DNA of 64,000 nt, taken from assembly GCA_000091205.1 (NCBI GenBank), contig AP006502.2; one strand, written 5' to 3'. This document shows positions 5,771 through 51,687 of the stretch, piece after piece; the first letter of the stretch is position 1; each line of letters starts with the position of its first letter. The notes beneath the pieces are model-generated. The model was not told the origin of the DNA. It worked only from the letters and a program-made list of their open reading frames with translations, and did not search any database. Made by a program: the position numbers and the translations under genes. The DNA is from Cyanidioschyzon merolae (lineage: Eukaryota).

Positions 5771-6527
5771 CGTCAACGGATCTCAAGATCGACGCTGATG
5801 CGCTGATACATATCGGAATTTGGACACGTGTGCTTCGCGGACCTCGTGTGTGCCTGCGTGCAACGTACATGAATCGGTACATTTCAGTTCGCAAGATCGA
5901 CGCTGATGCGCTGATACATATCGGAATATGGACACGTGTGCTTCGCGGACCTCGTGTGTGCCTGCGTGCAACGTACATGAATCGGTACATTTCAGTTCGC
6001 AAGATTGACGCTGATGCGCTGATACATATCGGAATATGGACACGTGTGCTTCGCGGACCTCGTGTGTGCCTGCGTGCAACGTACATGAATCGGTACATTT
6101 CAGTTCGCGAGATCGACGCTGATGCGCTGATACATATCGGAATATGGACACGTGTGCTTCGCGGACCTCGTGTGTGCCTGCGTGCAACGTACATGAATCG
6201 GTACATTTCAGTTCGCAAGATCGACGCTGATGCGCTGATACATATCGGAATATGGACACGTGTGCTTCGCGGACCTCGTGTGTGCCTGCGTGCAACGTAC
6301 ATGAATCGGTACATTTCAGTTCGCAAGATCGACGCTGATGCGCTGATACAAATCGGAATATGGACACGTGTGCTTCGCGGACCTCGTGTGTGCCTGCGTG
6401 CAACGTACATGAATCGGTACATTTCAGTTCGCGAGATCGACGCTGATGCGCTGATACATATCGGAATATGGACACGTGTGCTTCGCGGACCTCGTGTGTG
6501 CCTGCGTGCAACGTACATGAATCGGTA
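5771..6527. repeat. Tandem satellite, 108-bp unit, about 7 copies, near-identical.
   Basis: The unit ...aagatcgacgctgatgcgctgatacatatcggaatatggacacgtgtgcttcgcggacctcgtgtgtgcctgcgtgcaacgtacatgaatcggtacatttcagttcgc recurs at 5785, 5893, 6001, 6109, 6217, 6325 and 6433. Copies differ at only a few positions (caagatc/cgagatc, cataTcgg/caaAtcgg). The period is a multiple of 3, so it produces long artefactual ORFs in three frames. Confidence 0.9.
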
Positions 6528-9304: not shown

Positions 9305-9739
9305 CGAAAAAGCAGACGGAGTTGCAATGACGGGCAGTGGTCAGTGCGAGTTTCGCGATTCCCGTACAGGAGCCAAATCAAAACGGTACACCAGAGTGCT
9401 CGCGCTGTTCCTGCCTTGAGCATTTTTTTCGAAGTTTTGTTTGATGTTCAGTCTCTATTCTTGAAGTGGAGTTATTGGTGAATGAAAGATTTATACTAGG
9501 GTCTAGGTTGGTCAACCGCTCGCTCGGAGTGAAACCTTCGACGTTTTGTTGCCTCTGAAATTTGTGACCTCATAGACGACACAATAAAGCGGAATTCAAT
9601 TGAATATGGGTTCGTAAAATATCCGGTATCATTATCTAGTTCATACCTACAAACCTCCACGGTTCTGCTCCAGAGTTGTGTGTCGCATGCTCAAATGGCA
9701 TATTCTTCAAGTTTTTCGAATACCCGCGTGCGTAGTTGT

Positions 9740-9945
9740 GTGTGTACGTTCATATGCGGTTGCCTATCAGTTTACGTGTGTGCACGCATGTGTACCCGCA
9801 TTTGTTCATGTGCATGGATGTATATCCATAAAGGCGTGTGAGCGTCTTTATTCTTATGTGCGTATGAGTGTCTTTATGTGCATGGGCGTACGCGGATGCG
9901 TGTTCATGTGCATGTGTGTGTGTGTGTGGACGCGCCACTGTCGCC
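9740..9945. repeat. Low-complexity GT-rich tract (cryptic GTGCAT/GTGTG repeats).
   Basis: tgtgtgtgtacg...acgtgtgtgcacgcatgtgtac...gtgcatggatg...gtgcatgtgtgtgtgtgtgtggacg. It lies in the 1-kb gap between the lipid-kinase start and the hslU-like stop. Confidence 0.6.
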
Positions 9946-10318
9946 TCCCGGAGCACTTCATACGAGAATAGGTGTTCTGCATGTCTGCGAGTCTCTCGTT
10001 TTGTCCTGAGCTATTCAGATAGCGAGCTTCGGACTCGAAAGGCGGGACATCCGGCGTTCAACATTGCCGGGAAGCCACCAATCGATGGTGATGGCGATGA
10101 CGATGATAAAGAAACCCCTTGAGGCCCATCACATTTTCAAGAGCTCCGCTGTAGCCTGCGCGTCTACGCCGTCCCTACGTGCAGGTTTTCGCAAACGTGG
10201 CAAAAGTGATGTGTCGACTCCTTCGTGAACAGAGGTTTGGATCGCTGCGCTTGTGATCACGATAATCGGGTCCGCATACCAGCTCGCAGAGTTACCACCG
10301 CTGCGCGACCTCGGTGCG

Positions 10319-11986
10319 TCAGAGAACAAAGCGGCTTAGATCCGTTTTCAGCAGCATGCCACCAAGCGCATCGCGAACATTCATCACGTCAATGAGAACT
10401 CGTTGGCCTCGCATTTCCGGAGCCTCAAAGCTTATCGTTTCTATGATACGTTCCACAACCGTATGTAAACGACGTGCACCGATATTTTCCACCGTTGTGT
10501 TCACCTCTGCAGCAATCGCCGCCATTTCGTGAATAGCTGCATCCGTGAACTCAAGTTCGACGCCTTCGGTCCGAAGAAGTGCCACTTGTTGTTTCAGGAG
10601 CGAGTTCTCTGGTTCGGTGAGTATTCGGTACAGGTCCGCTTCGGTGAGACCTCTAAGCTCCACTCGAATCGGCAGACGACCTTGGAGCTCCGCCATGAGG
10701 TCACTAGGCTTACATTGATGAAAGGCTCCCGCAGCGACGAAGAGAATATGATCAGTATTCACGTTTCCGTACTTTGTGGAAACGGTGGTGCCTTCCAGAA
10801 GCGGCAATAGATCGCGCTGCACGCCCTCCGCCGAAGCATCCGCTCCGTGTCGGTAATGGCTTGGCGTACAGATCTTGTCGATTTCATCGAGAAAAACGAT
10901 ACCATCCTGTTCGGTAAGCTGAAGCGCCTGGCGGGTCAGGCTCTCATCCGAAAGTAAGCGCTCTGCTTCTGCCTCCTCGATGACGCGACGGGCATCCCGA
11001 ATTTTCATCCGCCGTTTGGAGGATGAATTCCCTCCAGCTCCGCTTCGCTGGACAGTAAAGATGCGATCAAGGCTGCGAATCATCTCCGTCATGCGCTCGG
11101 CACTGGCGTCACCGAGCTGCAGGAATCCCGGTCGATTCGAAAGCGGACGTGTTTCTTCGACCTCGATTTCGCGATCCTCCAAGGCACCTTTTCGCAGAAG
11201 ACTTCGGAAGGATTCACGGGTCGACTCGCGGGCTGCCGGACCGGTCAACTCATCGAGGATACGATCCTCCACGAGCTTGTCCAGTTCATTTTTGAGTCGC
11301 TTACGTTGTTTCTGTTTCACGAGAGAAATCGCGTTCTCGACCAAGTCTCGAATGATTTGATCCACATCACGTCCATGGAAACCAACTTCTGTGTATTTAG
11401 ACGCTTCAGTTTTCACGAACGGAGCGTCGACGAGCTTTGCAAGCCTTCGTGCGATCTCTGACTTGCCAACACCAGTGGGTCCGCACAGTAGAATGTTCTT
11501 AGGAGCAACCTCTTCCCGCAGTTCTGGAGGCAGCTGGTGGCGGCGCCAACGGTTTCGCAGTGCAATAGCCATGGCACGTTTTGCTTCCGTCTGACCAACA
11601 ATAAAGCGGTCTAGCTCCGCAACTACCGCACGAGGCGTAAGTGCTCCCGTAGCGTCCGGTTGTTCTGAGGGCGTCTCGGAGGTCGCAACAGAGTCGGGCT
11701 GGTGAAGCGACGAGAGGCTATCGTCTACGTTCACAGTGTGACGGTCACCAGAAGAGCATACGCTTCGTACACTCGTTCTGTACGTGAGTGAGACTGTTGA
11801 AGACGAAGGCCTTTGCAACGAAAAGCGATGTTGAGAAAACGAAGCAACGCTTCGTAGCCACAAGCGTTGCCTCGAAACGCTTCCATTGTGCTTGGTGAAC
11901 GTCCGGATGTAGCGAGTTATAGAAGAGAGTTCAGCTCTACTGTTTAAACGCATCTCTTGCGATAAACAGTAGCACACCTTCGGCAA
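10319..11986 (-). CDS. hslU: HslU AAA+ ATPase (ATP-dependent protease HslVU ATPase subunit), organellar type with an N-terminal presequence.
   Basis: TPRAVVAELDRFIVGQTEAKRAMAIALRNRWRR; Walker A NILLCGPTGVGKSEIARRLAKLVDAPFVKTEASKYTEVGFHGRDVD; Walker B GIVFLDEIDKI; C-terminal GRLPIRVELRGLTEADLYRILTEPENSLLKQQVALLRTEGVELEFTD...NIGARRLHTVVERI. An N-terminal ~100 aa Ser/Arg-rich extension precedes the conserved core. Confidence 0.85.
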   Translation of the reverse strand: MPKVCYCLSQEMRLNSRAELSSITRYIRTFTKHNGSVSRQRLWLRSVASFSQHRFSLQRPSSSTVSLTYRTSVRSVCSSGDRHTVNVDDSLSSLHQPDSVATSETPSEQPDATGALTPRAVVAELDRFIVGQTEAKRAMAIALRNRWRRHQLPPELREEVAPKNILLCGPTGVGKSEIARRLAKLVDAPFVKTEASKYTEVGFHGRDVDQIIRDLVENAISLVKQKQRKRLKNELDKLVEDRILDELTGPAARESTRESFRSLLRKGALEDREIEVEETRPLSNRPGFLQLGDASAERMTEMIRSLDRIFTVQRSGAGGNSSSKRRMKIRDARRVIEEAEAERLLSDESLTRQALQLTEQDGIVFLDEIDKICTPSHYRHGADASAEGVQRDLLPLLEGTTVSTKYGNVNTDHILFVAAGAFHQCKPSDLMAELQGRLPIRVELRGLTEADLYRILTEPENSLLKQQVALLRTEGVELEFTDAAIHEMAAIAAEVNTTVENIGARRLHTVVERIIETISFEAPEMRGQRVLIDVMNVRDALGGMLLKTDLSRFVL

Positions 11987-12310
11987 TAGCTATCACGCAG
12001 GGTGAACAGAGAATAGCAAATCCCGTTACTGCGGAGAGTTCGAGGCGGGCTCGCGCTATGCGGCGCGTACGAGCTGGCTGCGCTACCAGTCCGGCGAGCG
12101 CGACACTCGCTTTTCGACATGGAAGACCACATATCCATGTAAGCATAAAATGGAACCGGTCAATAAATCTAATCGGGAGTAAGCATTAATGTTGGCGTCT
12201 TTTCTCATTGTCATCAATAACAGCTTTTACGTGTCTTTTCCGCGACTGCTCCTTTGTTCTCTGTTGTATCTCCGGCATGAGATTCGTCGATCTCTATTTT
12301 TCCATCAAGC

Positions 12311-13516
12311 TCAATCGTCAGCAGTCGAAGTGTGTTGAAGGCAACTTCCTAGTCCCGATCTCGCCGCCTCCGGCTCTTGTCAAAGTACTACATGCACGGC
12401 CGGAAGCTGTAATCTACGCTTCGCCTGCCATTTTCATCTTCTTTAGATAAAGCAAAAGTGCGCCCTTCAGCGCCGCGGTCCTTGACTGTGTTCAGCTGTT
12501 CCCAAACGACCATCACATGACCTCCGAGCGCCATCCTGTGTCAGTTGAAGGCACGCCGCATCGCCCGGTACGGGACCGGTACAGTGCGCTCCGCTCGATA
12601 CCTTCTTCCGTGTCTCCGGCCACTGCCGAACCCTGCGATGACGGGCTTCTGCTGCACGATACCCTCGAGGAGTACGTTTTGCGCTACGTGCGCAAGCGCG
12701 CGCTGTTCCACGTAACAGAGGATCCGCGGAAAGCAACGCTGTCCGCAAGGAAACAAGAACCCCGAGAGAAGTCCAGTTTCGAGAAGTGACATATAAGTTT
12801 TCACTCCGTCTACGGTCCCTCCTTGCAAAACGACGACACGTTCTCCAGTCGAAACAACCGTTGCGATGTCTCAAGTCCGGGTCCAACACCCGATGCTCAT
12901 GCAGACAGAACAGCCGGGAGCAGCCTCTGGAGGCATATCCCTCGAACGGTAACCAGCTGGTGCTGCGGAACCCTGTATCGTTGATGGCCGCGAAGAGAGG
13001 AGCGTTTCTCTTCCCTACCTTGTCGACTATTAGATCACGTAGGGAAGATCAGTGAAATTGCGGCATGGACAGGCGAGCGAGTCCTCAGTGAACGATGTCG
13101 AGTTGCTTTTGTCGTCCGTCCAGTGGCGTGCAGAACTGCGCACATGCGTCGCCTTGAGGCAGCAAGGTCGGAAACTTGAAGAACGTGTCACTTGGGCGTG
13201 CGACGCATAAAGCTAAAAGAGAAGAACGGAGGTTTGTGTGTGTGTTTCTGTGAACTGAATTATGATACCGGATAGTTTACCAACCCATATTCATTCGAAT
13301 CCCGCTACATTCCGTCAACTACGACCTTCCAAAGTTCAGGGGCAGCAAGGCGTCGAAGGTTTCACTCCGAACAGACAGTCGAGCAACCTAGACCTTGGCG
13401 TAAATGTTTCATCCAGGAATGATTCCACTTCAAATATGGAGACTATACATCAACCAAAATTTCGAGGAAGCTGCTCAAGGCTGGCATAGCGCGAGCACTT
13501 CGGTGTAACACTTTGA
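12311..13516. repeat. Long direct repeat A, copy 1 (about 1.2 kb).
   Basis: Near-identical to 17401-18596. It starts at tcaatcgtcagcagtcgaagtgtgttgaagg and ends near ...gcgcgagcacttcggtgt. Only a few SNPs or indels separate the copies (e.g. tgtgtgtgtgtttctg vs tgtgtgtttctg). Confidence 0.85.
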
Positions 13517-14893
13517 TCCGACGCTGGTGTAGCAAACGCGAACACTGAAATGTATGCCAGTGTCACCGGGTTCGCCAGATTCGCACACTGCCTCGATCGC
13601 TCGTCGCTTTAGCACCCCTAGCCTAATCATACTCTTGGAGGAACGGAGGTCTCGTGCATGCCTGCTTATCGCAACAGAGGATCCAGGGCTTGGTCTTATA
13701 TTCATTGACCTGATTCCATTGAGGAACAAGCTTTCCCGGGATGTTTCATGCATGACGCACGAACAGTGTAGCAACGCAACGGCACGAGAAATTCCGCGGC
13801 CGAACAGCTCCAGCAAGACCCAGTTGGTGTCTCCTGCAAAGCGAGGCCATCATATAGATGCGAGGGCTGGACCCAGGCTATCTCGAAAGAACGGAATACC
13901 TTCATGTCCGGAGCGCAACGAAAATGCCTCGCGCGATGGTATTTTCTGTAGAGAACGCACTTCATGGATCCGCGCTCTAGTTATTACAGTATAGTGCCTT
14001 CCTGTTTCACCGGTAGAAACGGTATATCGAGCGCGACGCCATTCAGTAAGTGGTATGGGCTGCTTCGACGCAGACAGTGTGTGGCGTCAACTGCGTGCAG
14101 TTCTACGCGACACGAGAACTCGACGCCTTCCTGCAGCACGATCTAGCCGCTGATTCGCTGATCGTGTATACTTGTGCGAATGCGTTGTCTGGTTGTCAGC
14201 ATCCTGTACACCAGGGATGCCTGGTGGAACATCCCGAGAAGCGGCCCGACGATTTTGCGCAATACGCGTCGTGGCTTACGCTCCAGGGCTCAGTGCCAGA
14301 GGGAAATGCGCAGCCTCTTTCACGAGAACTCGGCATGCTTTATTATCGAAGGAAGATAGAATGGTTAGAGCTGCCCATACCATCGCTGCAGTTTCCGACT
14401 CGGTTCTCAAGAGACCTGACCCGATGCGCTGAATACAGTTCACATAGGGTAAGCGAGTTTCGTTGGACTCCCACTCCAACAAGTCTACCAAGAGGTTCGC
14501 GCTTCCAATCTGACCACATAGGCTTCGCAAGGCTGTTTGAATGAGCGCTTGGATTTGATAAGGCTCAAGTCTCACGGGCACCGCAAAGTCGACGTCGAAC
14601 CTGAGGTACGCGAAGCGAGCAGGCAGCGTGCAGCAGGGTCGCAGCAGACGCATACCCGACACGTACCAAGAGACGCCTGTCCCGGTGAGCTGAACGCCTG
14701 ACGAGTCCCGATGCAGGCGCGCTAAAAGTGTTGCTTCGTGGTTCGTTAAGTGCTCGGCTTCGTCTCCAGGGCGGTCTTGAAAGCCCAGAGCTCACGAAGA
14801 CGTTGCTAGGATTCTGTTGACTGGGGCTAGCTCCGAAAGACCGTGTGTTCTTGCGACATTTCCGAATATCATTGACAGAGGCTGGCTGCTGGC

Positions 14894-16264
14894 TTGCGTC
14901 GGTTTATCTCAGACATTTATGGATACAATGGACATTGCACATCTTGCCGTCTCCTGGCGACGGCTGGCAACGGCTCTGTCTGCGACAAACGGAACCCGTT
15001 CGAGCATCCGCGCTCCTTGCAGACTCAGAAGCATCTGATTTTGTACGTTACAGTTGCAATTCATCAACGGGCTTTTTGCTATGGTTGCTGCGTTATCCTT
15101 GCACGTTCATTCTCATTTTCCGACGTTTTCACGTCACTTGTAGAGCTTATGGAACTGGACGTGCCTCTTGATGCACAAACGCAGAAACACTGGCGCTCCT
15201 GTGAAAGGCGAGTTGCTGACGCTTTGCGGGTGCTGCAACACGGCGCACTGCGCGGGGAGCGGGATCTCGTTCACGCCATTATCTACCGCAATGCGAACCA
15301 GCACCACAAACACGCCTACTTCCAAGGGCTTCGAAGCGCAGTGCGGGCGCTGGATCGCTTGGACGCTGCGTTTGCTGCACAGAAAGGAAGCTTCGCTCGA
15401 GGAACTCTGCAACTTGATGAGAGCAACTGGCTTGCCGCCCTGGCTCAACTGGATCAGGTACTCATACAGCACCTGTACTCGCGGCAGGAGGTCCAAAAGC
15501 GGCCGCCGCAAGTCACACACCCGCACGGGACGAACGCCTCGTCAGCCCCGGCCCTGCAGTTGTCTTTGGAGACGATAGCAAACGCACTGGAGCCTTTGTT
15601 GGAGGTTGCTATTGAGTGGCTTGCAGTTGTGCGTCACCGACTGCGCATCAGTTTTAAACACGCTTGGCACCACTTGGTCCTGCGTGCGAATTTCCTAGCG
15701 CTGGGCATGGCCCTTGTGGCAGCTGCAGGTCGGCTGCACGCAATCGTAGAGCGGGCGATGGAGAGTCTGACACACGCCCGCTGCCATTTGCACTGGATTC
15801 GAAAAACGCGTCAGAAGCATGCTCGACATGCCAGTACTCGTGAAAAGCGTCCGCAACAGCACCCATCGCGATCAGCGCAAAAAGCTGATCAGTTGCGAGA
15901 GCCAGTCAGCTCTGGAAGGCAACAGAGGCACGCAGGCATCACGCGTTCAACCGGTGTCATCGTCACGGGTTCTATCGAGGCACATGCGAGGATGCGCAGC
16001 ACGAACGACGAACCTTTACATGCAGCTCCTTCTCTGTATCACGCGTTAGAGGCGACACGCTCGCGCACCTCCGAATGGAGCGCCGCCCCTAACGTTTTTT
16101 CGACCTCGCCTCCTGATCGCGCTGCACCGCAGCGGACTCGGGAAGAAGAGCCCGCAGAGACCATGCCGCGAAGCCATTCAGTAGACAGCCTTGATGAGAT
16201 ATTTGCAGCGGCGGAAGCGTCGGAGGCCGACAGTCTTGAGCACCTGAGGCGTTATATTGACTGA
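14894..16264 (+). CDS. Hypothetical protein (456-aa ORF; a likely start is the internal Met at ~15134, MELDVPL...). It lies inside the cassette bracketed by direct repeat A.
   Basis: It is the longest ORF in the 13.5-17.4 kb interval. The central part is non-repetitive and the C-terminus is Ser/Arg/Gln-rich. I recognise no family. Confidence 0.3.
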   Translation: MRRFISDIYGYNGHCTSCRLLATAGNGSVCDKRNPFEHPRSLQTQKHLILYVTVAIHQRAFCYGCCVILARSFSFSDVFTSLVELMELDVPLDAQTQKHWRSCERRVADALRVLQHGALRGERDLVHAIIYRNANQHHKHAYFQGLRSAVRALDRLDAAFAAQKGSFARGTLQLDESNWLAALAQLDQVLIQHLYSRQEVQKRPPQVTHPHGTNASSAPALQLSLETIANALEPLLEVAIEWLAVVRHRLRISFKHAWHHLVLRANFLALGMALVAAAGRLHAIVERAMESLTHARCHLHWIRKTRQKHARHASTREKRPQQHPSRSAQKADQLREPVSSGRQQRHAGITRSTGVIVTGSIEAHARMRSTNDEPLHAAPSLYHALEATRSRTSEWSAAPNVFSTSPPDRAAPQRTREEEPAETMPRSHSVDSLDEIFAAAEASEADSLEHLRRYID

Positions 16265-17400
16265 ATAGTGACGAAGGGAAGGCACTTGATGGGATAGAGC
16301 CACAGGTTTGCATTTGTGACCCGTCCTGGGCCAGCTTAAACTGTCGCAGACGATACGGTCATGTCTCGTCGCAGACGATACGCATTCCAAATCGGAGGAT
16401 ACAGGAAATCACAGAATACGCATGTAACTATTGTTTTCCGCGCGAATGATTCTGGCTGGAGGTTTTTGACGTTGCATCGAGCGGGGCTTGGAACGTCGAA
16501 GTAATCGGAAGCAGCAGCCCGCTTCTATTAGCTTTCTCGCCGGTGGTGCATTCCTTTCTGTGTCAAAACCGAACACTTGAACAGCTCCAGCAGTGCTCGT
16601 TTGTCTCCTGGAAACAAATGCGTGTACATGCGGATGCATCCTGTGCGGAGTTCTGTTCCGTCGGCTCTGCCTAGAGAACACGGGCTCGTAATTTAACAAG
16701 CCGCTCTTCTCTTTCCACGCGTAGAAGGCTAAGTATCCACCAACACGATCTGGAAGCGCGCTGTCTGTCGCCCCAGGGTCGCGGTTCCTAGTTTGAAGGC
16801 GCGCAGCACGGAACAGCCTCGCCATGACCTCGCAAGTGGTGTCGGGTCGCGCCTTGTGGACGCGCCACCATCATGTCTCTGTCCACATGCTGCAACTATG
16901 CCGTACAGAGCATTGAGTAGCACTGACTTGGTATACTACGTTTGTAAAATCAAGGTTCCGGTAAGCGCTCTAAAACTTAAGAACAGAAAGAACTCTTTGC
17001 AAATCCTCGTTGAGTCTCCGGGCGAAAGAATCTATTCGCTCCACCTGGGGCGCTCATGAAAATGTCCTTGTTCCTCGGCGCGACCTAGCCATGGGTAGCG
17101 TAGGATCTGAAGGCCCTATCCGAGCCCGAGCAAGCCACAAGTTCGAGCACGATAGGCATCAAGCGAGCTCTGCGCAGCAGGTCCGCGTCGGTATGTGTTT
17201 GGTAGCTGGCCATCACGTCCACATTCATATCAGAATAATATGGGACTGTTCCATATGCCTTACTCGGGTACATATGCTAACGATAAGGTATATTCCCACT
17301 ATGAGCAACATCAGCCTTTGCGGGCTTTTTCTGTGACCGCTTCCTTTTCCTCTCTCCTCTCTTCGACTTTAAAATGAGCTGGGCTCTACTGTCTTTCCTG

Positions 17401-18596
17401 ATCAATCGTCAGCAGTCGAAGTGTGTTGAAGGCAACTTCCTAGTCCCGATCTCGCCGCCTCCGGCTCTTGTCAAAGTACTACATGCACGGCCGGAAGCTG
17501 TAATCTACGCTTCGCCTGCCATTTTCATCTTCTTTAGATAAAGCAAAAGTGCGCCCTTCAGCGCCGCGGTCCTTGACTGTGTTCAGCTGTTCCCAAACGA
17601 CCATCACATGACCTCCGAGCGCCATCCTGCGTCAGTTGAAGGCACGCCGCATCGCCCGGTACGGGACCGGTACAGTGCGCTCCGCTCGATGCCTTCTTCT
17701 GTGTCTCCGGCCACTGCCGAACCCTGCGATGACGGGCTTCTGCTGCACGATACCCTCGAGGAGTACGTTTTGCGCTACGTGCGCAAGCGCGCGCTGTTCC
17801 ACGTAACAGAGGATCCGCGGAAAGCAACGCTGTCCGCAAGGAAACAAGAACCCCGAGAGAAGTCCAGTTTCGAGAAGTGACATATAAGTTTCATTCCGTC
17901 TACGGTCCCTCCGTGCAAAACGACGACACGTTCTCCAGTCGAAACAACCGTTGCGATGTCTCAAGTCCGGGTCCAACACCCGATGCTCATGCAGACAGAA
18001 CAGCCGGGAGCAGCCTCTGGAAGCATATCCCTCGAACGGTAACCAGCTGGTGCTGCGGAACCCTGTATCGTTGATGGCCGCGAAGAGAGGAGCATTTCTC
18101 TTCCCTACCTTGTCGACTATTAGATCACGTAGGGAAGATCAGTGAAATTGCGGCATGGACAGGCGAGCGAGTCCTCAGTGAACGATGTCGAGTTGCTTTT
18201 GTCGTCCGTCCAGTGGCGTGCAGAACTGCGCACATGCGTCGCCTTGAGGCAGCAAGGTTGGAAACTTGAAGAACGTGTCACTTGGGCGTGCGACGCATAA
18301 AGCTAAAAGAGAAGAACGGAGGTTTGTGTGTGTTTCTGTGAACTGGATTATGATACCGGATAGTTTACCAACCCATATGCAATCGAATCCCGCTACATTC
18401 CGTCAACTACGACCTTCCAAAGTTCAGGGGCAGCAAGGCGTCGAAGGTTTCACTCCGAACAGACAGTCGAGCAACCTAGACCTTGGTGTAAATGTTTCAT
18501 CCAGGAATGGTTCCACTTCAAATATAGAGGCTATACATCAACCAAAATTTCGAGGAAGCTGCTCAAGGCTGGCATAGCGCGAGCACTTTGGTGTTC
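17401..18596. repeat. Long direct repeat A, copy 2.
   Basis: Same sequence as 12311-13516, 5090 bp downstream and in the same orientation. Confidence 0.85.
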
Positions 18597-18696
18597 CATT
18601 TTGATCTAACACGACTTCAGCGCATTGAGCTCTGCGGTTCTCGGACAGCGCTCTTGGAACTGCGCCTACTTGTCTGCTTCCCTCACTTTACTGTAA

Positions 18697-19515
18697 ATGT
18701 CGAGGTTTTTGTCCCGAATATGGACTCGGGACGTGCTGCGAGCTTTCTGGGTCCAAGACCGACGGGTTCTACACCGATGTCTAGCTCCCGCTTCGTGTCG
18801 GCAGTGGCAGCTGCAGGGCTTCGGTTCGCGCAAACTCACCGATACGGCAGCGCGCTCGAAGGAGGAAGCAGAGACCGCTGCAGGTGGAGCGCCCCATGCG
18901 CAAACTCAGAGCGAAGTTCTCTCAACTATTGAGGCGCTATTGTCGAAACCGTGGACTGGAGAGTTTGAGGCAAACCTTGTGCCACTGGAGCCTCACCTGG
19001 AACGAGCAGCAACCATCTTAGCCCGCGAACAGGCGGACTGGCAGAAAGTTCAAGTCGCTACCGGTCCAAGTCCAACCGCTGAGGCCCGAGCGTTTGTACA
19101 CGACCTCCATTTGCTGTTCCTCGTCAAGGAAATGGCCCCGACAGCGTCTTTACTTGCAGAAACCGCCCTGGACCTTTTACGTTTGCGTATGGATGAGACC
19201 GGTTTCCTTGGCAGCCAAGTCAAACCGTCCAAGTCACAGCTAGAAAGCGAGATCGAGGACACAGTTCGTGCCTATGAGGCAGCAACACGCCGTCTAGAAT
19301 CTGCTAAAGAGAAAGCGGTTCGGGATGCTCCTATCCGCGAGCCGATTTGGAACGAGGCCATACGAAAATGGGAACTGGATGTAGGCATCCACATCCTGCA
19401 GCTGAGGCAAACCATCAGCATAGAGGGATACAGTGAACGGTTCGGAGCGATTGCAGGGCATCGCATTGTTCCAGCTAGAGTGGTGTCCATCGAGAAATCT
19501 GACTCCACAGGCTGA
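18697..19515 (+). CDS. Hypothetical protein (272 aa).
   Basis: The ORF starts about 100 bp after repeat A copy 2. It has an N-terminal Arg/Ser-rich presequence-like segment followed by a non-repetitive, helix-rich sequence. No family recognised. Confidence 0.35.
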   Translation: MSRFLSRIWTRDVLRAFWVQDRRVLHRCLAPASCRQWQLQGFGSRKLTDTAARSKEEAETAAGGAPHAQTQSEVLSTIEALLSKPWTGEFEANLVPLEPHLERAATILAREQADWQKVQVATGPSPTAEARAFVHDLHLLFLVKEMAPTASLLAETALDLLRLRMDETGFLGSQVKPSKSQLESEIEDTVRAYEAATRRLESAKEKAVRDAPIREPIWNEAIRKWELDVGIHILQLRQTISIEGYSERFGAIAGHRIVPARVVSIEKSDSTG

Positions 19516-30253: not shown

Positions 30254-33200
30254 ACGAGTACAGAGTGAGAGCAGTACCATTTAAGAGATTGTAGAACCTT
30301 AATTTCAGTGGGCCTGAGTTACGGAACACCATAATCGTTTATCGCTAGCAACTGCTGGGGGGCTCGTTTCTGGTGTATATATATCTATGGCGCACCAGCT
30401 TTGCTGGAATGCCGAACCGTACCAAACCATACCATACAAGTGCGTTGCTCCAAGCGAGAATCCAATACCCTTTCCCTTGGCCTCTGAAAGAGTTCAGTCC
30501 AAGCCCATAGCTTTTCCGCAGGATGCGCATACTGAGCATCACACGATTCCCTCGAAAAGTTCGGTCGAAACAACGCTGTCAGACGCTCGGGCAGCACGAG
30601 GCATTTCCGCATTGTGACCGCGATGTTGTCGTTTCTGTGCATATATATCGCTTTGGCTCATGGTTGCTCGTGGAATTACACGATACCAAGCATCTCAGTT
30701 GTGTTTTCCTCGTCATCCAACGTTCGCCCAGAGCTTACCTTACACCATCTCGTGTGTGCGTCTCCGTTTTGCGTCCCTTGCCTCTACTCGTTTCATCTTG
30801 AACTCGTGCTCGTAATACGCGCGTGCTAGCCTGGAAGAATCGATGGGAATCATACAGAATAGATTCCCGCACTTATCATACACTTCCGTGGAAGGAGCAG
30901 AAGTGCTGGCCTTGCGCGTCACAGCACGCTCTGCGAAGCGCGCTACCTCCAAACGAAGCGACTTGTCGATCGTTTCCTTTCCCAAATTGCTGAACGAGAT
31001 GAAGAATGCATGTTTCTTGTTGCGATTCATCGGAAACCGTTGAATACGCTTGCACGGTCCCATATACTCCTGTAAAATGTCGTCTGCAAGCACCAGGTGG
31101 ACGCTCAGTTCTCTTCTGCATGAATTGCCAAAAGTTTTCTTGTGTTCGATAAGGGTCTCAGTGCCTCAATGCGGGTCTTGAAGCAGTTATTCCACGAGTT
31201 AGTATGCCTGCCGACGTCCATCATGCCCGCTCTTCTATAATACTGGGCCCCGGAGAAGTTCAGCAGTTTCACCAGATTATCGCTCTAGTCTTTTGCTCGG
31301 TCCAATTGATTTTGGGGTACGGCGACGGCTACAAAGACTTTTAGCGGAAGTTCAGGCCCACGAATAAGACTTCCTCTATATCTACCCTGAACTACTGAAA
31401 AAGAATCTCGTAGCTCGATTCATGCGAAGTATTTGAAAAGTGCATGCAGATTCATGTTCCGTAGGCCTCCATGCTCGATGTAAACCTCTTTCCATTTCCT
31501 TGCTATAAGAGCGAGACCTTGGACGCGCTCCGCAAACGCTCTTCGCAAAGTTCTGGAAATGCTTTAATCATGTTCGCAGAGGCTAGTTGCTGTTCACTCC
31601 GTAGGACATGCAGTACAGAAGTGCATATACTGAGATAGAGGGTCTTGATTGGACATTTGGAAGCCAAGCGGAACACAGTTTTGTCGTGCCGACGGCGCTC
31701 GGATGCGAGAAGCGTTCGTCGCTCATGAAGGCGCAATGCAAGATAAGACAGTGGCGCGAAATGTACTCCAGGTATCGCGTTTCGACCATCCTTGGAATAC
31801 GATGTTTTTCGGTCCGCATCCGAGAACAATACGATGAGTTTGATCGATCGTTTTCTTCTGGACGCTTTTTCCGAATTCGCCACCATCAGCTCTTCCATCA
31901 GTCCCGACTTTTCTGTTTGAGTGTGATGAGGCTGGGACAGTGATAGAGCGGTAATTATGAAGAGTTGGATATTGAGCCGCATATTGTTTTCGGTATCGAG
32001 GATAATCTTATATTTTTAAGCACCTGCGCTATATATGATGCTTTCGCTGAGTTGCCACTGCGACGCGTCAAGGTATTCTGAGAAGCACGTGAGCAGCTCC
32101 TGGTCCAAAGATCAAGCCTGATTGCGTCTTCTGTCGACAGCACCAGTCGCACTGCAGCACGAAGGTGTGATCGAAAACGGTTCCGAATGAATGTGAATAG
32201 CTAGTGGCTCTGAATCCGCAACTCGTACAAACAGTTACTCGATGAGTTGTGTCATAGCGATAGAACCGAAGCGAGCCCTGGACGAGTTAGTAGCTCCATG
32301 ACCTATGATAACTTCCCGTATCTTACGATTTTTCTCAGATTCATTCTTTTGATGCGTTCTTGTTCGTAGACTTGGACAAGGCTTTGAACCGGTCTTGCTG
32401 TACAGAGAGTTTTTCCATTCTTTTCGTCCCAGTCCCTTGTTCGGGAGAATCTGTCTCACCTTTCTCAGGTAGTTTCTTCTCCTACTGTTTTGCAAGGTGG
32501 GGTGGTATGAATTTGGCCGCTGTACTCCAAATCTGAGTTATTCCTCGGGATTCGAACGCAAAGCGTAGATGATGGGCGCCATGCTAGCCGGTTGTATCGA
32601 TGTATATCTCCACTTCTCGTCGAGCAATTGTTCATCGTCTTCCGTTTAGCGAGCACGCCGCTGACCGCACCGCACTATTCCGCTTCCTCCTGCGTACGAA
32701 GAGAGAATCAACACAGACGGGAAGGGGAGGCGAAGCCAGAGAACGACATGTCGAGCAACGATTAGTCGACGAACTTCTGTGTCTTGTGTGCGAAAGACTC
32801 GTCTATGGACCTGCGAGCTTCAAAATGGCATGTTAGGACAGAAAAGACGCTTTCGACTGGATTGGACCAAGTAGAGCAGGCCGGCAGGACAAGCGACTCA
32901 ACGCCTATCCCAGCTGCGCAGGAATTTACCGCTCATGAGTAATGAAAACCTAACTTTGTGTAAATGCATAACAGAATATTGTCGTAAGCAGAAGCTGCGA
33001 ACTAACTCGATGAAGAAATCCGGTCGCTGTACGATCCTCTATTCTTGGTGACTTGTAGGAGGCCACAAGATCGAATCGCCGCTAGAGCGGATGTCATTGG
33101 AATGCGCACATGTCCCTTCTTAACGAAAACTGAAGAGACCCGCTTCGAGGTACCCATATTTAGGTCTGCGTCCTGTTCTGAATAAAGCGTTATCGACTGA

Positions 33201-35437
33201 GAGGATAAACTCGACGCTCCAGTGATAAGCGCTCGCGTTGCAATACGAAATCGACAATGTGTTCTTCAATTAGCGACCGCGCCCCCGAAGAGCGTACTTC
33301 TTCCCTTGTCCATCCGTATCTCTTCATAACAGTTCGTATCGAGGTTGCGAGGACTTCATATCCTGTGGCTTCTTGTGCATTGTTTCTTAGACGACGTATT
33401 GGGTGAAATGTATCGACAAGGCTCCAGTCGTAAAATTAGACTTGATCAATTCGTTTTTGGGTGCAGAATGTTCAGGATAAGGACTACGAGAAGCGTATGC
33501 GTCTACCTGCTGACCATGAAATCAATGATTCAAAGAAATTAGGCCCTTCTTCTCATTCACGGTGTGACATAGAAAGTCTTTCTGCGAAAATCTTCGATTC
33601 CTGGGGACGCATTTCTTTGTTGAGTGCATACGAGCAAAAAAAACAAATACAAAAAGGCTCTCCTGCTACAGGTGTACCAGAGTTGTCGATTCAGAGTATA
33701 AAAACACCTGCTGGAGCTTGTTCGTGCCCGATGCCTTTAAAAGGCGCCACCAGCTCGTGCAGTACGGATCATGCGGTTTTAACTTAGGTACTGTTTCAGA
33801 TGCTTCCATTCCGAGCATGGTCATCGCTCCGTTCATTCGGAAAGCATTCTTCATTGAGTGATGCAATGACAAGTGTGCACAAACAGCATCGATAGATTCC
33901 TGACAAGTGCCACAGCCGCGCACATCGATAGCTTTCATTGCGTCAAGGCCGATTGCGCTTTCGGTCACTGGAACGCGCCAAGCTGCAGACGCTTCCGGCA
34001 ATCAATATGAACCACCAATTCCAACGCATAAATAGCGTCGCTCGAGAAGTTTGCAAACGGAAACCCATGCTTTCGGGATGAAAGACGCTCACTGACTCAG
34101 GTTACTATGTCGCCGAAAAGCCCGGTTATCGGCAACAACCTATAGGTGCATCCATCGCGCATTGCAGCACATTTTATGCTGAACTCAGAGATCCCTATCC
34201 GCGAGCAACATGAACTGCATGCTTCATCCAAGGCAAAGCCGATGTCCTGCCTGCTGGTTGGTGACGACGAGCGGCTTTCCCGAATGATCCATTGCTGGGA
34301 AGAAGAATGCCGGAAGCTGGCCTTCGAAGGGAGTTTTGGCATCAGTTCCGTCGCTCTGTTGCACCATCTTCATGGGCACGTGCTTTGGATGCAGTTGTCG
34401 AGAGACTGTCTCGCATCCTCGCGAAAATTGGCAGCGATAATAAGAAAAGAACTTGTATCACCGCTGAAAGTTTTTCGTGCTGGTCCACAGATACTCTATC
34501 CAAGCGCTAAAATCAGGATGCACTACAGGTCAATGGTTACCGAGTTATCTGTGTAAAGAAGGCATGCTCTGAAAGACAATGTAGACTTAGATGGATCGAG
34601 CGTAAAGAAATATCTAGCAGGGCACCGAGTCTCAGGCGCGATGCTAGAAATGAGTTGCGTCGACGCCAGGCCCAAGCGGGCTCCCTGGGCAAAAGCCCCC
34701 AAAAACAGGAACGCACACGTGTATACTTGCGTATCTTTATGCATGGAAGTGCGTATCTATGAACATGCATAGGAATGCGCAGAGACGCTTTGAAATTTAG
34801 GATTCCGCGGTTTCAAGGCTCGCCATACTGCAACGTGCACGCTGCTAATCTTGGCATCGGCATACAATGAAACGATTTCCTGATTCCGAGCATATTTCTG
34901 GTAACGAACACAAGAGCCACCGCAGGAGCATGTTCATCGTCTATTCTTTCCAAAGCGTGGTGGAACGACAACGTTTTCGTAGAGCCAACGACGACTACGT
35001 TAAAGGTGCAGAGGCCAATCGTCGTTGTTCGCCAGGTGTTTTCGGACTCGCATGAGACGAACCTCTCTGCTATCGTCATATATTTATACGTATTCGAGGT
35101 CGCGTAATGAGGCACTGCGTAGCATGCTGAAAAGAACATCATGGACAGCGCGAAGAGGGACAGTTTCACAGCGGTTAAGGGCAGACGCTCATGGATATCG
35201 CTCAGAATCCAAGTCAATTTTTCTGGGTGGTATGCCATACTACCCAAACAAGATAGCGTTTCAGAGGAGGCGCCAGATCTATGGACTGTTTATGGTACTG
35301 TGCTGTACGCAAATCGACCCGGTCGCACTGCAAGTATCCTTGAAGCGCCAGCCGTGCTCTTGCTCCTTGTTCAGGACGTTCGCAGCGCTCCAGACGCCTC
35401 TCCGGATGCCGATGGACACTGCAGTTTCGGGCGCACG

Positions 35438-37588: not shown

Positions 37589-40500
37589 TGATTCCGTCGT
37601 CGCCTTCTTCCCGTGCAGTACAGGCTCGCAGGGAAGCAGGTTCAGCCGGCCGTTTCAGCGTGTTCGGAGACAGTCTCTACGTAGAAATTGTGTATTGTAA
37701 GGAGTGCTACTCCAGGACGACGTTTGCAGAGGTTTCGATCGCTGGCGGAGCTCCAAGCCTAGCACGGGAAAGGCCTGTAGATGTTTCAGATAAACCTCCG
37801 AGGCAGCGTGGCTGCCGCCTAGAGCCTCGGATCGGAACGGGGAGGCTTTCGGGGGAACGGTTTGAAAGTGTTTGCGATGTTACACAGCTGATTTTCATAA
37901 GGCGGAAGTTGGATGCGGAGTCAGCACCTGACTCCGCAGCCAACTTCGGGAAGAGCAGGTGCCCGGACTCGGAACCTCGCAGGAGCCGCCTACCGCGCAT
38001 GGATTTGGCACGGCACGCTGTGAGCATCGTCGCAGCAGTGAACGGAGCTGGCAAACTAAGGTGCTTGATGAAGATGTTGGGCGCGCTGCCTTTACTCCAG
38101 TGACGAATTCGTCTGCAAGCCCTGGCGAGCACCCCGCGGTACCTCGACAGCGTCAGAGGCCGTTGACTACGCCAAGCAGTATGCGCTGGTGACTCCATCC
38201 AGAAAATGTCGACCGCTGGCGAAACAGCGAAACATGCATGCTGTTCATGTAGTGTGAGCAACCTTTCCAAAGACCCATAGCCAATATTCGACTGCGATAG
38301 CGCTCGCGATCTCCGCTGGGATTTAGACACCTCAAGGCTTTAGGTGTTGGATATGCCTACCTGCTTGCCTGCATGATCCAAGGTGGAAACACGTTACTGT
38401 GGGTGCTTGGCAAAGCGTCGCGCAGGACTGCTCTCTATATCTTTGTACATTGCATCAATGCGTATAGCCATCCGCACAAGGAACGACGGCGTTGCCGCGT
38501 TCCAGACGCAAGCCCTATGCCTTCTACTTCATTATCAGGAGTGCTCCCGCAAGTTTGTGGCGATAGTACAAGTATGCTGGTTGCATGCACGTGCACATGG
38601 AAGGTGCTCTGTCCATTCAGCTTGGGGACGCTCCCATGCATAAAACAAAGCGTAGAGAGGCAACATGGTTGTGCGTGATCGAGGGGTACAGAGCGGTCCT
38701 GGAGAATGCAAGCGAAATGAACTTTCTCACTCCTTGTTTGGATTCGTAACACTCGGTTTCCCTGCAAGTAGTGAATTCTCGGCCTAGCGCTATCGGATTT
38801 CAGCGCCACAATGACCATCTTTGGTGCATGTCCTGAATATACACCTGATGCAAGGATCGTAGCACCCTATGTTTGCGCAGTAGCTGACCATGCCTGAGCG
38901 CAACGAACGATACGTCGTCTTGAAGAGGGCCTTGTGGCGCAATACGCAAATAGACGATGTTTACTTCTAATTGAGCGTGCCTGACCCCTGATATCGGCAA
39001 TCATTATGCACGGGTCAGGCACTGATCGAGGAGCGCTCGCGAGAGACAGATACAGGCAGGGCAACAGGATTTCATGACCATTGCTGCAAGCCAATTCACT
39101 CTATCGGAAACAGTGAATCAGAGTGAGTACGAATGTTCCGGCACACAGAACGCGTTTTCAAGCATGCTTCCGGCTGGTGGAGCTCGGCTTGGATTGGCTG
39201 TTGCCGAAATAATGCTTAATATTGCGTTTCAGATTAAAACGGAATACTGAACGTCTCGCTCTCTTCCTGCCATTCGAATTGTCCGAAGATTTTCACGTAC
39301 GGGCCCGAGGTTGGAGATGCAGCTATCAGGGTTTCCGGATTCATGCGTAGTTTAAGGTTATGGGTCGAGTTTCCGAAGTTGCTGCTTCTACGTTCTGCCG
39401 CCGGAATTCCTTTTGTCACTGTCATCAAGGTGATTGGCGACTCCCTCGACCAAGCTTTCATACAATAACCGATATCGTTATCCAATGCATACGTAATAGC
39501 CTCCATTCTTCTCTTTTCCTTACAAGTAGCATGGTCAGGTAAAGCATTCTCTAAGTTTTCGATCTTTCTCTTTCAAGGCAACGCGTGAGTGCACTTATTT
39601 GCACCGCTTGGTTGACAACTGAAATACTCAACTACATTAGTTGAGGACTGTTCATAAGCTCATGCGGAAAGGTTGCTGAATTTGTCACGTCAAACAATCG
39701 ATTCCATTCGAAATAGAACGCTTCCCTTATTCGTGTTCGTTGACGAATCAGGATACGATAGCAGCATCATGCCTCTAAGAATATACGCTCCGAGAGACAT
39801 CGATCTTTTCTCTTCGCATGCACTGAGGTCTTGGAGCCAGACCCTAATCCTCGCAGCGATCGCTCGTGCTAAAGAGCGCATTATCGTTTTGATGAACGAG
39901 AGCAGAAACGGATCGACTTTCCTCCAGCCTGGATTTTCCTTCCGATTTTCTTTTCATCATAATCAACATCGTGTTCCACAAACGATCTACCGAATAGCAG
40001 CACGTGCGCTTGCACGTTAAACAGACATACTAGTCGCCGAGTGGATCACCCAGAACAAGCCTGTGTCCGTAAGATACGTCACTAGGTGCGAAATCGGAGG
40101 AAGGTTCGCCCAGGCGAGCCCTGTCTACACGTCATGGGCACTACCGAGCAATGAGGCAAGCCGTAACGCACCACGGGGTTGAACTCGTTGAACGATGTGT
40201 GGTGGAGATATGGAAACGCCTAGCCACAGTCAAGTGTGAATCCTGCGAAGGTCGCATTCATGTTGCGTATCCAGAGGGCGAGCATTGCGAACGAAGCGCA
40301 GATCACAACTACCATCCGTGCACGAATTTCTTTGACAACGCCTGGAATCAGCAAATTCAGGACTTGAACACTGCAATCAGCACCCTTCGACTGCTGACAA
40401 CCAAGCCGGAGCGACAGGACAGACTAGCGTATTCAACGCCCCAGATAATAGACGCGAACGTGAAACCCCCACAGAAATAGCCTGCGAGGGCTGGTGTTGA

Positions 40501-41575
40501 TGACAGCAGACATAGAACCGCTGTTGAAAGTGGGCAACCAAGTTGGAGGACCTATCCCATTTCGGTCTGAAACGTGGTTTCAGAATGCGCCCTGTTCACT
40601 GTCGACAGTGTTCCGATGCGATGCGGATTTGTGACGTGTGAGATGCACATCAACGGCTATCAATATATAGTTACTGTGAGGATCTGAGCCTGCGTATACG
40701 ACAACGCTGATCTTCGCCCTGGAAACCGGCAACTTGTAGCGCTCACACTCCCTGCTCGTCGGATACCGCCCAAGTGTGTGCCTCCGCTCTCATCGTAAAC
40801 GCAATTCAGAGTAACCGGTTCTTCTGCGCGCATGCGATCATGACAATCACCAGCGCGCTGATGCGCAAGAGGCATGCTCAGTGAAACCCTGAAAAAACCC
40901 TTTACGCCAGAAAAATCATAGACGACAGGTTCCCCGTTTTTCTACCGATTTGTAGCCATGCCGCTTCCTCTAGCTCCGACGACGATTGAAACAAGGGCAT
41001 GAGAGGTGGTATCGCCATGCCCGAGCGCTTGGAAACCTTCGGTGGAGGCCGCGAACTCTGGACTTGGGTCGATGGTACTTTCTTGAGAGATGTCCATTTC
41101 ATTCATTATAGATCTAAATTGTCCAAAGTGATGCTCGCGTCGATGCCCGGCAGGCTTCGCTGTGCGAGTCGAAGGATGGCGATTTGAATTTCGTTGCTTG
41201 GGTCAGCGCGGTGCTCCAGAGGCGCTCAACCGGGCCTCTTCCGCAGCACCTGAGCATATCCCGGTCAACCAAACGAGGGAACTGCTTGAAACGTTACTTA
41301 AAGCTAGTGCTCGTATCGGAACGTTCCTCCTTGTTGAAGTGAACGGGAGGACGGTGTTTGCCCGGGTTCTAACTTTGGTCTGGGAAGAGCCGAAAGCGTC
41401 TTGTTTACGGTGCGATCAGTTTTCAGCCAACCGGCAAGTTGCAGCTGGGACGGGAACTCTCGAGACTTGTAGATCACTTGGAAAAGAGCGCTGTTCGCTG
41501 ATTAAAGGACAGCAGCAAAGAGAGGTCCCGAGGGTTTTGTGTTGAGATTTGTCGAGCGCTTGAGCAGACAACTGG

Positions 41576-48369: not shown

Positions 48370-49665
48370 GTGTATGCGCTGCTTTGCAAGCATGTCACGT
48401 GAGGCACCTGTAAACTGTTCCCGTGAATACCACTGGCAGTACGGTTCGAGTACTGACGCGAAAGGGGGTCCACGAGGCGGAGAAACCGCCGTATCGGTCT
48501 ACCTATGGATGCTCATTTACATCGGGGATGTCTCTACTGTAGCGGGCTTTCCGGTCCGTAAACGGATATGTTCTGCGGTGCTCCATGTAATGCTGCTACT
48601 GGTTTGCGTCGCCCTCGATCATGAATTGCGGCTGATGAATGTACTTGTCCGCTCGCGTTCTGGACAGCAACTCGGCGACCAAACGATCGTGACATCGCCA
48701 AGGCGACGGTCGGGAACTCGTGACCCGAGCGCTGCTTTCTCCATCACTCAGACGGCTCGCGTTATGCAGTTCGATAGGCAGAAGCCCTGCTTTTTTCAGA
48801 GGATGAAGTACCACGTGCGATACGGCGAGCTTCTGCCTGCTGGTTTGCAGAATGGCGACGTGCTGGCTGTTCACCTGCTTGTTTGCGAGTCGCAATGCGG
48901 CGTGATGCCGGCGCCATGTGTCGAACCTGCACCACACAAGCACACCTCACTGCCACAGGTGACAAGGTCCGCGAACTTTTGGTATTAGCTCGTAAACAAG
49001 GCCTCTATGCACGACGTCGAGTATTTTTCGTCGTCCTTCCAGCAGCACAAATTGCTGCATCCACGTGTAGCCCTGGAACAGAAACATCAAAAACTTGAAG
49101 CATGCGTGATTCGATCATGTACCACGAAAGGTAATGACAAGAATGCAATCGTGTAGATTTGAACTGCATCATGGCATCGAATATGTGAAGGTGCTATGTT
49201 ACAGGGATTCGCGATTAATTCTGCTTCAGGTAACGTTACGATTCCCAGCAGCAAACAAGCCGACGAGCAAACCAAATACGCTACCAAGAATCCTAAGAAA
49301 AGCAATGGTTCCACAATTCGTTTTCGCTTGACCTCGAATGCCGAGCATACATATCTGAATAAAGTTCGGAAATAAAAATAACCAGGAACAGCGTGAGCAC
49401 CTCCCTGTTCCAATGTAGTTTCCAACGACATTACCCCGGGCACGAGCTTCGATGCTGGATCCGCCGCCCCCTTTCGATCCGCGCCGTCTCCAGATGCGCG
49501 TCCCGTGATGCATGCATCGGTAATCCGCCGCTGCTGCTTGCCGCCGCCGCTGGGATCGACGCAGATCAACATCCGCGCCTGCGGGCGTGCATGTCGCACT
49601 GCGAAAATGTACTTGTCGGTTACCGAATTGCGCACGACGCATCTCTGGATTCCAGATAGCGAGGA

Positions 49666-50394: not shown

Positions 50395-51687
50395 ATGGCA
50401 TGCGACGAACTCATGTTGCAGGCACCGCTGCCTTGAGCTAGGAGTGGCACCCGTTGTGGCCGACATATCCCTCGTACACGGTATGAAACCGGCACTAGGT
50501 GAGGCTTGAACGTGATCCTCCCGAATCATGCCTTACACGCCAGCTGATTGTCTTTGCAGTATGGACATCGTTCCAAGGCGCAGGCTCGCTCGCTGATGCA
50601 TATCTTGGAGAAGGATGCCTCCCTTGCTGTTCATGGTTCGTTGAAAATCCCTGATTTAACTGCTAGTGCATGTGGCTGCTTCATTCGCTTTATCCGTGTA
50701 TGTACCCGAGAACTGGCCCGTGCTCGCATCGCGTACTCCGAGCTGGAAGCTTGCAAACGCCTGCACAGTTCGCGGGGAATGCATAATGGACTGTAAACTC
50801 GAATCGAAAGGACGCTGGGTTGTTTGTTCGATATCACTCCATCCGTTTGGAACTAAAATGGAACACGTCGACAAAGCCAACACGGGCGCACACACGAAAG
50901 CTGGGGTCTCGTCCCAGTGACGTCGACAATAGCCTGTGTACGGGCTTTTTGCGACTAATTGCTTTTCCTGACTATAATCTCCGGTTTCGAAAACGAGCGT
51001 TCTTCTGTGTACTCCAGCTCAGCTGTTGACAGTCAAACATCGTTCATGGTAGCGTATATAGCCCGATGTTGCTATTTCCGTGAGTTATCGACGCATATCA
51101 TGTACAGGCGCAAGCTGCGACCTCTGTTTCGCCTGAAATTTTCATCTTCTTTGTATGCAGCCTCGGTGGGCGCTTCGCAGCGTTGATGCTTGGCTGTATT
51201 CAGGAGTTTCCATGTGACCATAATGTATCCTACTCCGATGGCGGCTCAGTGGCGCACGAACGCTTGCTTTATCACTCCATCCATGCCGTTGACGGATACA
51301 GAGGACTCTCCCCGGTGCTTTCTGCGGCTTCTGTTCCTGGCGCTGGGCCAAACGATCAGCGGCTTCCGCTGGGCGATCGTCTCGGTGAGTAGGCTGTTCG
51401 TTGCACACCTGCAAGCGCACGATGTTGCATTCGATACCGCACCATCCGCCTGTTTGCAAGCTGTTCGATTTCTGAGCGCGCTATCGAAAAAAGTGCCGCG
51501 GAGCTTCACAGGTATCGAAATACTTTGGTAATTCGTGGGTACGGAGTCCGCAGCTGCGGCCCGCTTGCGACGATGCGACCAATGCTGCTGGGATTCCCTT
51601 CTGTATCGCTCGCTCGTACGTCATTCTATTCACACTTTCGTTCTCTTCCGCTGACCTGAAGATAAAAGTCGCGCTTTGAGACGCAAA

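Follow-up and report, generated by a model that had tools for sequence, protein, structure and literature searches.

Why do two stretches of intergenic DNA on chromosome 20 of Cyanidioschyzon merolae 10D, lying about 5 kb apart in direct orientation, agree at almost every position, and what does this agreement mean for the genes between them? The window analysed here is a stretch of 64,000 nucleotides from contig AP006502.2 (assembly GCA_000091205.1). The left copy of the repeat, R1, occupies 12311-13518 and the right copy, R2, 17402-18606, both on the forward strand. A repeat search together with blastn identified them as the only direct pair of its kind at the locus. The blastn alignment comprises 1,208 columns with 98.18% identity, 19 mismatches and 2 gaps; counted by position, the copies differ at 22 alignment positions, that is 19 single-nucleotide polymorphisms (SNPs) and 3 gap columns. 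Their starts are 5,088-5,091 bp apart and the segment between them (13519-17401) measures 3,883 bp. A match of such length and identity cannot have arisen by chance. An earlier inspection of the sequence (the original prediction) had described two direct copies of about 1.2 kb, about 5090 bp apart and separated by few SNPs and small insertions or deletions. We found it accurate with 19 SNPs and two indels, except that its end coordinate, 18596, falls 10 bp short of the end of R2.

As judged from sequence comparison, the near-identity of 1,208 bp is a homogenised tract inside two pre-existing copies of one repeat family. The key to this reading lies outside the tract, since both sites carry a diverged family extension of their own. 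At R1 this 5′ extension covers 12125-12310 (forward strand; profile match 12125-12282, E = 6e-10) and starts 172 bp from the ATG of HslU, and at R2 it covers 17202-17401 (forward strand; profile match 17202-17377, E = 5e-13). The profile was built solely from the 5′ extensions of two older family copies near 40 kb and 51 kb, and no R1 or R2 sequence was included. It gave exactly two further matches in the 64 kb, both directly left of R1 and R2. In a lenient blastn search, the left flank of R2 alone matches 50820-51008 and 40506-40408, which adjoin the cores of the same two copies. The R1 and R2 extensions are 56% identical, like any other pair within the family, compared with 23-34% for non-homologous columns in the same alignment. 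Family homology reaches about 180 bp to the left of the tract, and at 12311/17402 the identity rises abruptly to about 99%. Beyond the right end of the tract, a weak resemblance to the family persists for 20-30 bp; here R1 resembles the copy at 9.4 kb and R2 resembles those at 40 kb and 49 kb.

The differences within the tract form a mosaic. In 10D, the last 120 bp hold 8 of the 19 SNPs, a divergence of 6.7% against 1.0% in the rest (binomial P = 2.6e-4). Contigs from public assemblies (numbered L001, L002 and so on; the C. merolae-like ones are about 99% identical to the window) extend this observation to other strains, among which the 3′ end haplotype of R2, physically linked to the right flank, is polymorphic. 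Three nested haplotypes are found within 120 bp of the junction in contigs reading from R2 into the unique flank. The 10D sequence has R2-specific alleles at all eight junction sites and L016 and L023 at the last four only, whereas at the last three sites these alleles are missing from L001 and L002, with L002 keeping T at 13501. Two contigs that lack the enclosed segment (L017, L021) are R1-like beside the right flank. Except for 13501, the alleles of R1 at these sites are the same in every contig. The junction sites and the unique flank are covered by one 127-mer, which makes their phase reliable. Furthermore, all four possible allele combinations occur among the copies at 16 pairs of sites separated by 100 bp or less (four-gamete test).

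The explanation which we favour, and regard as rather probable, is that R1 and R2 are old neighbouring family members which are kept near-identical by interlocus gene conversion, a homogenisation that is most likely ongoing. We infer this process, and likewise its direction, from the pattern described above. Non-reciprocal recombination between the copies would have made 1,208 bp of each unit near-identical and would keep them so, and the first ~180 bp of each unit would have stayed outside the conversion tract and drifted to the observed identity. The repeats would thereby act as passive recombination substrates in the intergenic regions on either side of the genes POP5 and CMT124C. Both genes are probably essential in the haploid cell. 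A deletion between the repeats would remove these two genes for presumably essential RNase P/MRP subunits and could be expected to be lethal, so that only conversion products would persist. C. merolae is known for the integration of DNA by homologous recombination (PMC12874030, PMC3764038).

Several points weigh against gene conversion. Recombination between sequences of about 56-60% identity should be inefficient or rare; for this reason, the model would need either continuous concerted evolution since the copies arose or a first event mediated by microhomology or complementary DNA (cDNA). The latter option corresponds to the chief rival considered below. In the four-gamete test, metagenome haplotypes may combine R1, R2 and several strains wherever the flanks are more than about 127 bp away, which makes this test a weaker argument, and one Logan contig was assembled with a short k. 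No further near-identical copy of R was found by exact look-ups of its open reading frame (ORF), by a single 24-mer scan and by the family search over the 64 kb. A 24-mer common to R and the 9.4-kb copy was found at this locus only in a metagenome scan, a weak negative given a collection poor in this alga.

By sequence comparison R can be classified as a non-coding repeat, a member of a dispersed family with a unit of about 1.4 kb. Searching with R1 alone as query, nhmmer detected six family copies in the window, the older ones being 58-79% identical (E from 1e-17 to 1e-75); reversed and shuffled queries gave no matches. An old full-length copy lies on the reverse strand at 39201-40600 (E = 1e-75, about 58% identity). 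Two partial copies lie on the forward strand, one with the 5′ part only at 50800-51436 (E = 4e-39) and one with the 3′ part only at 48949-49441 (E = 3e-17), 225 bp upstream of a gene identified as DUF4079 by its Pfam match. A further older copy, 5′-truncated and inverted, is located on the reverse strand at 9369-9737 (E = 1e-53), 73 bp upstream of a sphingosine-kinase-like gene, and has 74-79% identity to the 3′ part of R. The original prediction had noted that it would fall if the unit proved to be a high-copy dispersed repeat. R does belong to a dispersed family, but its relatives in the window are clearly diverged and none approaches the likeness of R1 and R2.

There is no hint of a protein or a known RNA encoded by R. 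In tblastx comparisons of R with the older copies, similar scores were obtained in all six frames with stop codons throughout, which places the homology between copies at the DNA level. No Rfam or transfer RNA match was found, either in the whole window at the gathering threshold or in 11900-18800 at E ≤ 1. The 90-aa ORF pointed out by the original prediction is present in both repeats (12517-12789 and 17608-17880). We rejected it as a gene: strain variants comprise 1 synonymous and 5 non-synonymous changes, the stop codon is lost in one variant, NCBI has no such protein, and the older copies do not keep any frame. A small hairpin, GCAC-UUCG-GUGU, is located at 13495-13506, about 12 bp before the tract end, and has equivalents in R2 and the 9.4-kb copy. 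Its stem is kept in all three copies and its loop varies (UUCG, UUUG, UCUG). In Ensembl, about 28% of the genome is marked as repeats by an automatic annotation that defines no consensus families (PMC11050394), so the R family is probably flagged there and yet uncharacterised.

In two related algae (Cyanidiococcus and a third lineage), no family copy was found at the syntenic loci, and their three intergenic regions are about 1.4 kb shorter at each R site. Because of both observations, the family seems to represent an insertion confined to the lineage of C. merolae. The same comparison revealed that the block HslU-POP5-CMT124C is inverted in C. merolae (9305-18696) relative to Cyanidiococcus yangmingshanensis and the third lineage (L011, L012), with the flanking gene order kept. 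At each of the two inversion breakpoints, the intergenic region includes a family copy, and the two copies are oppositely oriented, with 9369-9737 on the reverse strand at the left and the R2 unit on the forward strand at the right. With 79% identity, these are also the two most similar of the non-identical copies. It is plausible that recombination between inverted family copies produced the inversion, in whichever lineage it took place.

A second, unrelated repeat family of about 3.2 kb was observed in the window, with copies occupying 30479-33684, 51686-53751 and the final part of the window from 62005 onwards. Its older parts, among them the portion 62005-63114, are 57-62% identical. It also contains a direct tract of 97.7% identity, 51686-52439 against 63249-64000 (cut by the window end), with the copies 11.5 kb apart. 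A protein search with the ORF of this family found only the query itself and no homologue. It appears that old repeats have been homogenised locally at more than one place in this genome, as the second family likewise shows old copies together with one near-identical tract. It might be the published 3.2-kb repeat of C. merolae, although no link between the two was shown.

Other histories of the pair have to be weighed against gene conversion. A recent copy-and-paste event by an element, in which a 5′-truncated copy landed on, or replaced most of, an older copy 5 kb away, would account for the pair in a single step, and we consider it unlikely, though deserving some weight. The route could have been, for example, a transcript that was reverse-transcribed by a reverse transcriptase of the non-LTR type (without long terminal repeats) and integrated by recombination with the resident copy. 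It is favoured by the copies at 9369-9737 and 48949-49441, which share the 3′ region and miss 5′ parts, by the tract itself, which starts internally and reaches to about 20-30 bp of the family 3′ end, and by the 26 non-LTR reverse-transcriptase elements of C. merolae (PMC1955436). In addition, a 10-bp direct repeat, GAGCTCTGCG, at 17165-17174 and 18627-18636 brackets the R2 unit as a possible target-site duplication, with a chance expectation of about 0.9% per test in five tests run. However, an A-rich or simple-repeat tail is lacking, no target-site duplication was found at R1 or the other copies, and the copy at 50800-51436 misses its 3′ part and not its 5′ part. A single event also fails to explain the mosaic of 6.7% and 1.0% divergence and the three nested junction haplotypes. 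A recent segmental duplication of the plain kind suggested by the original prediction would mean that 1.2 kb of unique DNA was copied 5 kb away and then drifted to 98%. High identity, direct orientation and short distance agree with it, but the simple duplication of unique DNA fails because a family copy was already present at both sites, each of which has its own old 5′ extension adjoining the tract. The differences are moreover unevenly spread along the tract. We judge this history improbable and no longer the best reading. The other ground on which the original prediction could have fallen was a faulty assembly of the reference, for instance through a contig join made twice. No point in support of such an artefact was found, and we give it practically no credence. 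The 10D genome sequence is a finished, gap-free assembly (PMC1955436), and all four junctions, L-R, R-C, C-R and R-Rt (L, left flank; R, repeat; C, enclosed segment; Rt, right flank), are present with about 99% identity in independent metagenome assemblies, which together make an artefact unlikely. The two copies differ at 22 alignment positions, and copy-specific alleles beside unique flanks recur in independent contigs, with L016 and L023 sharing the R2 alleles of 10D there.

The original prediction also considered a repeat pair able to mediate excision or amplification. As a functional recombination cassette, the repeats would drive the excision of POP5-CMT124C as a circle or its tandem amplification and so alter gene dosage. 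Some contigs seem to fit such a cassette at first sight. The full layout L-R-C-R-Rt is found in L001, L002, L016 and L023 and partly in L020 and L039, while a deleted layout L-R-Rt without the segment occurs in L017 and L021, from two assemblies. A junction layout, in which the end of C runs through R into the start of C, is present in L005-L007, L022, L025, L031-L033, L041, L042 and L048; together with the self-overlapping 5,213-bp contigs L003 and L004, it is found in at least 13 assemblies. The deleted and circular contigs first appeared to be excision products, but we rejected them as such, as they look like de Bruijn loop artefacts. L009 and L036 end exactly 121-127 bp inside R, the mark of a repeat collapsed at k = 127. 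In the full-layout contigs, R1 equals R2 at every variable site or at all except a few next to the right flank, a pattern that a double passage through one collapsed node would produce. Sample 3300027863 holds the deleted-form L021 plus a separate contig of the segment, L045, with 92 and 101 bp of R at its ends. Other contigs of the locus are mis-joined: L022 is fused to AT-rich foreign DNA, and L028, possibly chimeric, is fused to an unrelated gene block where many contigs break. A working cassette thus appears very improbable. That the pair can mediate excision or amplification stands only in principle, although rare events may have escaped the short-read assemblies, and gene conversion remains the reading that we prefer.

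The segment between the repeats is, on the comparison of gene order, ancestral host DNA and not foreign or mobile cargo, because its arrangement of POP5 and CMT124C is the same in the two related algae. The two genes are divergently arranged, with the same adjacency in Cyanidiococcus (L011) and the third lineage (L012-L014). The POP5/Rpp14 gene, encoding a subunit of RNase P/MRP, lies on the reverse strand at 14276-14653 (Pfam PF01900, 30 bits against a cut-off of 23) and has syntenic 131-aa orthologues in L011 and L012. No NCBI protein belongs to its cluster, and in the 10D GenBank set the genes on either side carry successive accessions (BAM83134 and BAM83135); on these grounds, POP5 appears to be unannotated as a protein in the 10D record. 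The 456-aa ORF which the original prediction placed between the repeats (14894-16264) is present, but the real ATG gives the 371-aa protein CMT124C (15149-16264, forward strand), with 100% identity to BAM83135.1. CMT124C is RMP1/NEPRO-like by its UniRef name and by Pfam matches to RMP1 and NEPRO_N, both below threshold. It shows 99% identity to its own cluster and 43% to two orthologues, one of them from Cyanidiococcus yangmingshanensis.

In the intergenic region between POP5 and CMT124C (14808-15035), many metagenome contigs end or turn chimeric at 14808-14819 and 15008-15035, which points to about 200 bp of strain-dependent sequence in the promoter region that the two genes share. At 14808, L028 is joined to an unrelated Mak16/Bud23-like gene block. 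A third ORF in the enclosed segment, of 146 aa, is located on the forward strand at 13554-13994, 36 bp downstream of R1, and its coding status is uncertain. It has no Pfam match, no tblastx match in the related algae and no counterpart in the NCBI 10D proteome. Strain variation amounts to 2 synonymous and 3 non-synonymous changes without stop codons. That it is a real gene seems doubtful.

On the left, the segment and R1 are followed by HslU (BAM83134.1; 10319-11953, reverse strand), with 91% protein identity to L011 and L012. The right neighbour, beyond the inverted block, is CMT126C (18697-19515, forward strand), with 63-66% identity to 271-aa orthologues; the 3′ end of R2 lies 91 bp upstream of its ATG. 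ORFs of the neighbourhood match the consecutive proteins BAM83133-BAM83137, namely a sphingosine-kinase-like protein, HslU, CMT124C, CMT126C and CMT127C. The numbering passes from CMT124C to CMT126C, and the skipped tag CMT125 may belong to a locus annotated there as something other than a protein gene. No mention of the locus tags CMT120-127 was found in papers, or of CMT122-126 in the supplement of one paper.

The position of the copies relative to genes raises the further question of whether the R family serves as a portable upstream module, consisting of promoter and 5′ leader. Five copies keep the 3′ end. In three of these five, a start codon of the same orientation follows after 36-91 bp, namely that of CMT126C, of the 146-aa ORF or of the sphingosine-kinase-like gene; a fourth ends 225 bp short of the DUF4079 gene. 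We consider such a function quite doubtful. If it applied, CMT126C would be transcribed from R2 as its working promoter, a lineage-specific transcript or a new small ORF would depend on R1, and conversion would keep two promoters matched.

Some features of the window are unconnected with the repeat pair. A tandem array with a period of 108 bp and about 98-99% identity (5781-6527) overlaps ORFs 5′ of an ABC-transporter gene. L020 aligns across this array with about 334 bp (roughly three units) fewer, and its copy number seems to vary between strains. Another tandem array, with a period of 81 bp and about 90-92% identity, lies at 56547-57033 inside overlapping ORFs on both strands. At 60-1937 on the forward strand, a single ORF fuses an inorganic pyrophosphatase domain to both fructose-1,6-bisphosphatase domains, and this fusion (706 aa) is also found in related algae.

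C. merolae is a model alga prized for a very simple, finished genome and for efficient homologous recombination. The locus shows that its intergenic DNA harbours repeat families that are old and uncurated, and it suggests an exchange of sequence between neighbouring copies, which may also have mediated the inversion of three genes. These findings have a practical bearing on the design of gene targeting and on short-read population assemblies, which mis-join here, and they expose the missing annotation of POP5. On the whole, the pair is a real feature produced by what we take to be an ordinary mechanism and is no new kind of genetic element.

The comparison with known elements supports this placement. 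With two direct repeats of about 1.2 kb around a few kb of DNA, the pair resembles an LTR retrotransposon, a class the original prediction had rightly set aside. It differs in its termini, as the tract begins TCAATC and ends TTTGATC in place of TG...CA, and in lacking a target-site duplication of 4-6 bp, since the flanks ...CATCAAGC|R1 and R2|TAACACGA share none. Gag and pol are likewise absent, and the interior consists of conserved host genes in conserved synteny. Nozaki et al. (2007) found no LTR retrotransposons in the C. merolae genome (PMC1955436). An LTR element is excluded by its termini, target sites and content and by this reported absence. Non-autonomous retroposons, such as SINE-like elements or 5′-truncated LINEs (short and long interspersed nuclear elements), are closer in some respects: several R copies are 5′-truncated and share a common 3′ region, there is a hairpin near the 3′ end, and non-LTR reverse transcriptases are present in the genome. 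The copies at 9369-9737 and 48949-49441 show the 5′ truncation typical of this class, while that at 50800-51436 is 3′-truncated; a tail is missing from the family, and the candidate 10-bp duplication occurs at R2 only and not consistently. No remnant of a reverse transcriptase turned up in the window, where a six-frame remnant scan of the repeat-rich regions was not completed. A Helitron, with 5′ TC, 3′ CTRR after a GC-rich hairpin and insertion between A and T, does not fit, as the family unit runs about 180 bp to the left of the 'TC' and its 3′ end is TTTGATY and not CTRR. The interspersed repeat described in C. merolae, with 253 copies of about 3.2 kb and a truncated WSV486-like ORF (Nozaki et al. 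2007, PMC1955436), shares with the R family the genome, the dispersed distribution and an origin that is unknown. By its unit of about 1.4 kb and the lack of a frame kept between copies, the R family appears distinct from it.

The closest likeness is to low-copy repeats that undergo interlocus gene conversion. The R pair differs from these in consisting of non-coding units from an interspersed family, set in an algal genome that is very compact and largely haploid, and the sequence outside its tract (about 56% identical) is far more diverged than usual for active partners. As in such repeats, the units are longer than 1 kb, more than 95% identical and a few kb apart, and copies in opposite orientation lie at inversion breakpoints. 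The pair also shares with them a tract with sharp identity boundaries inside older homology, a mosaic of divergence, polymorphisms shared between copies and the replacement of alleles in some individuals.

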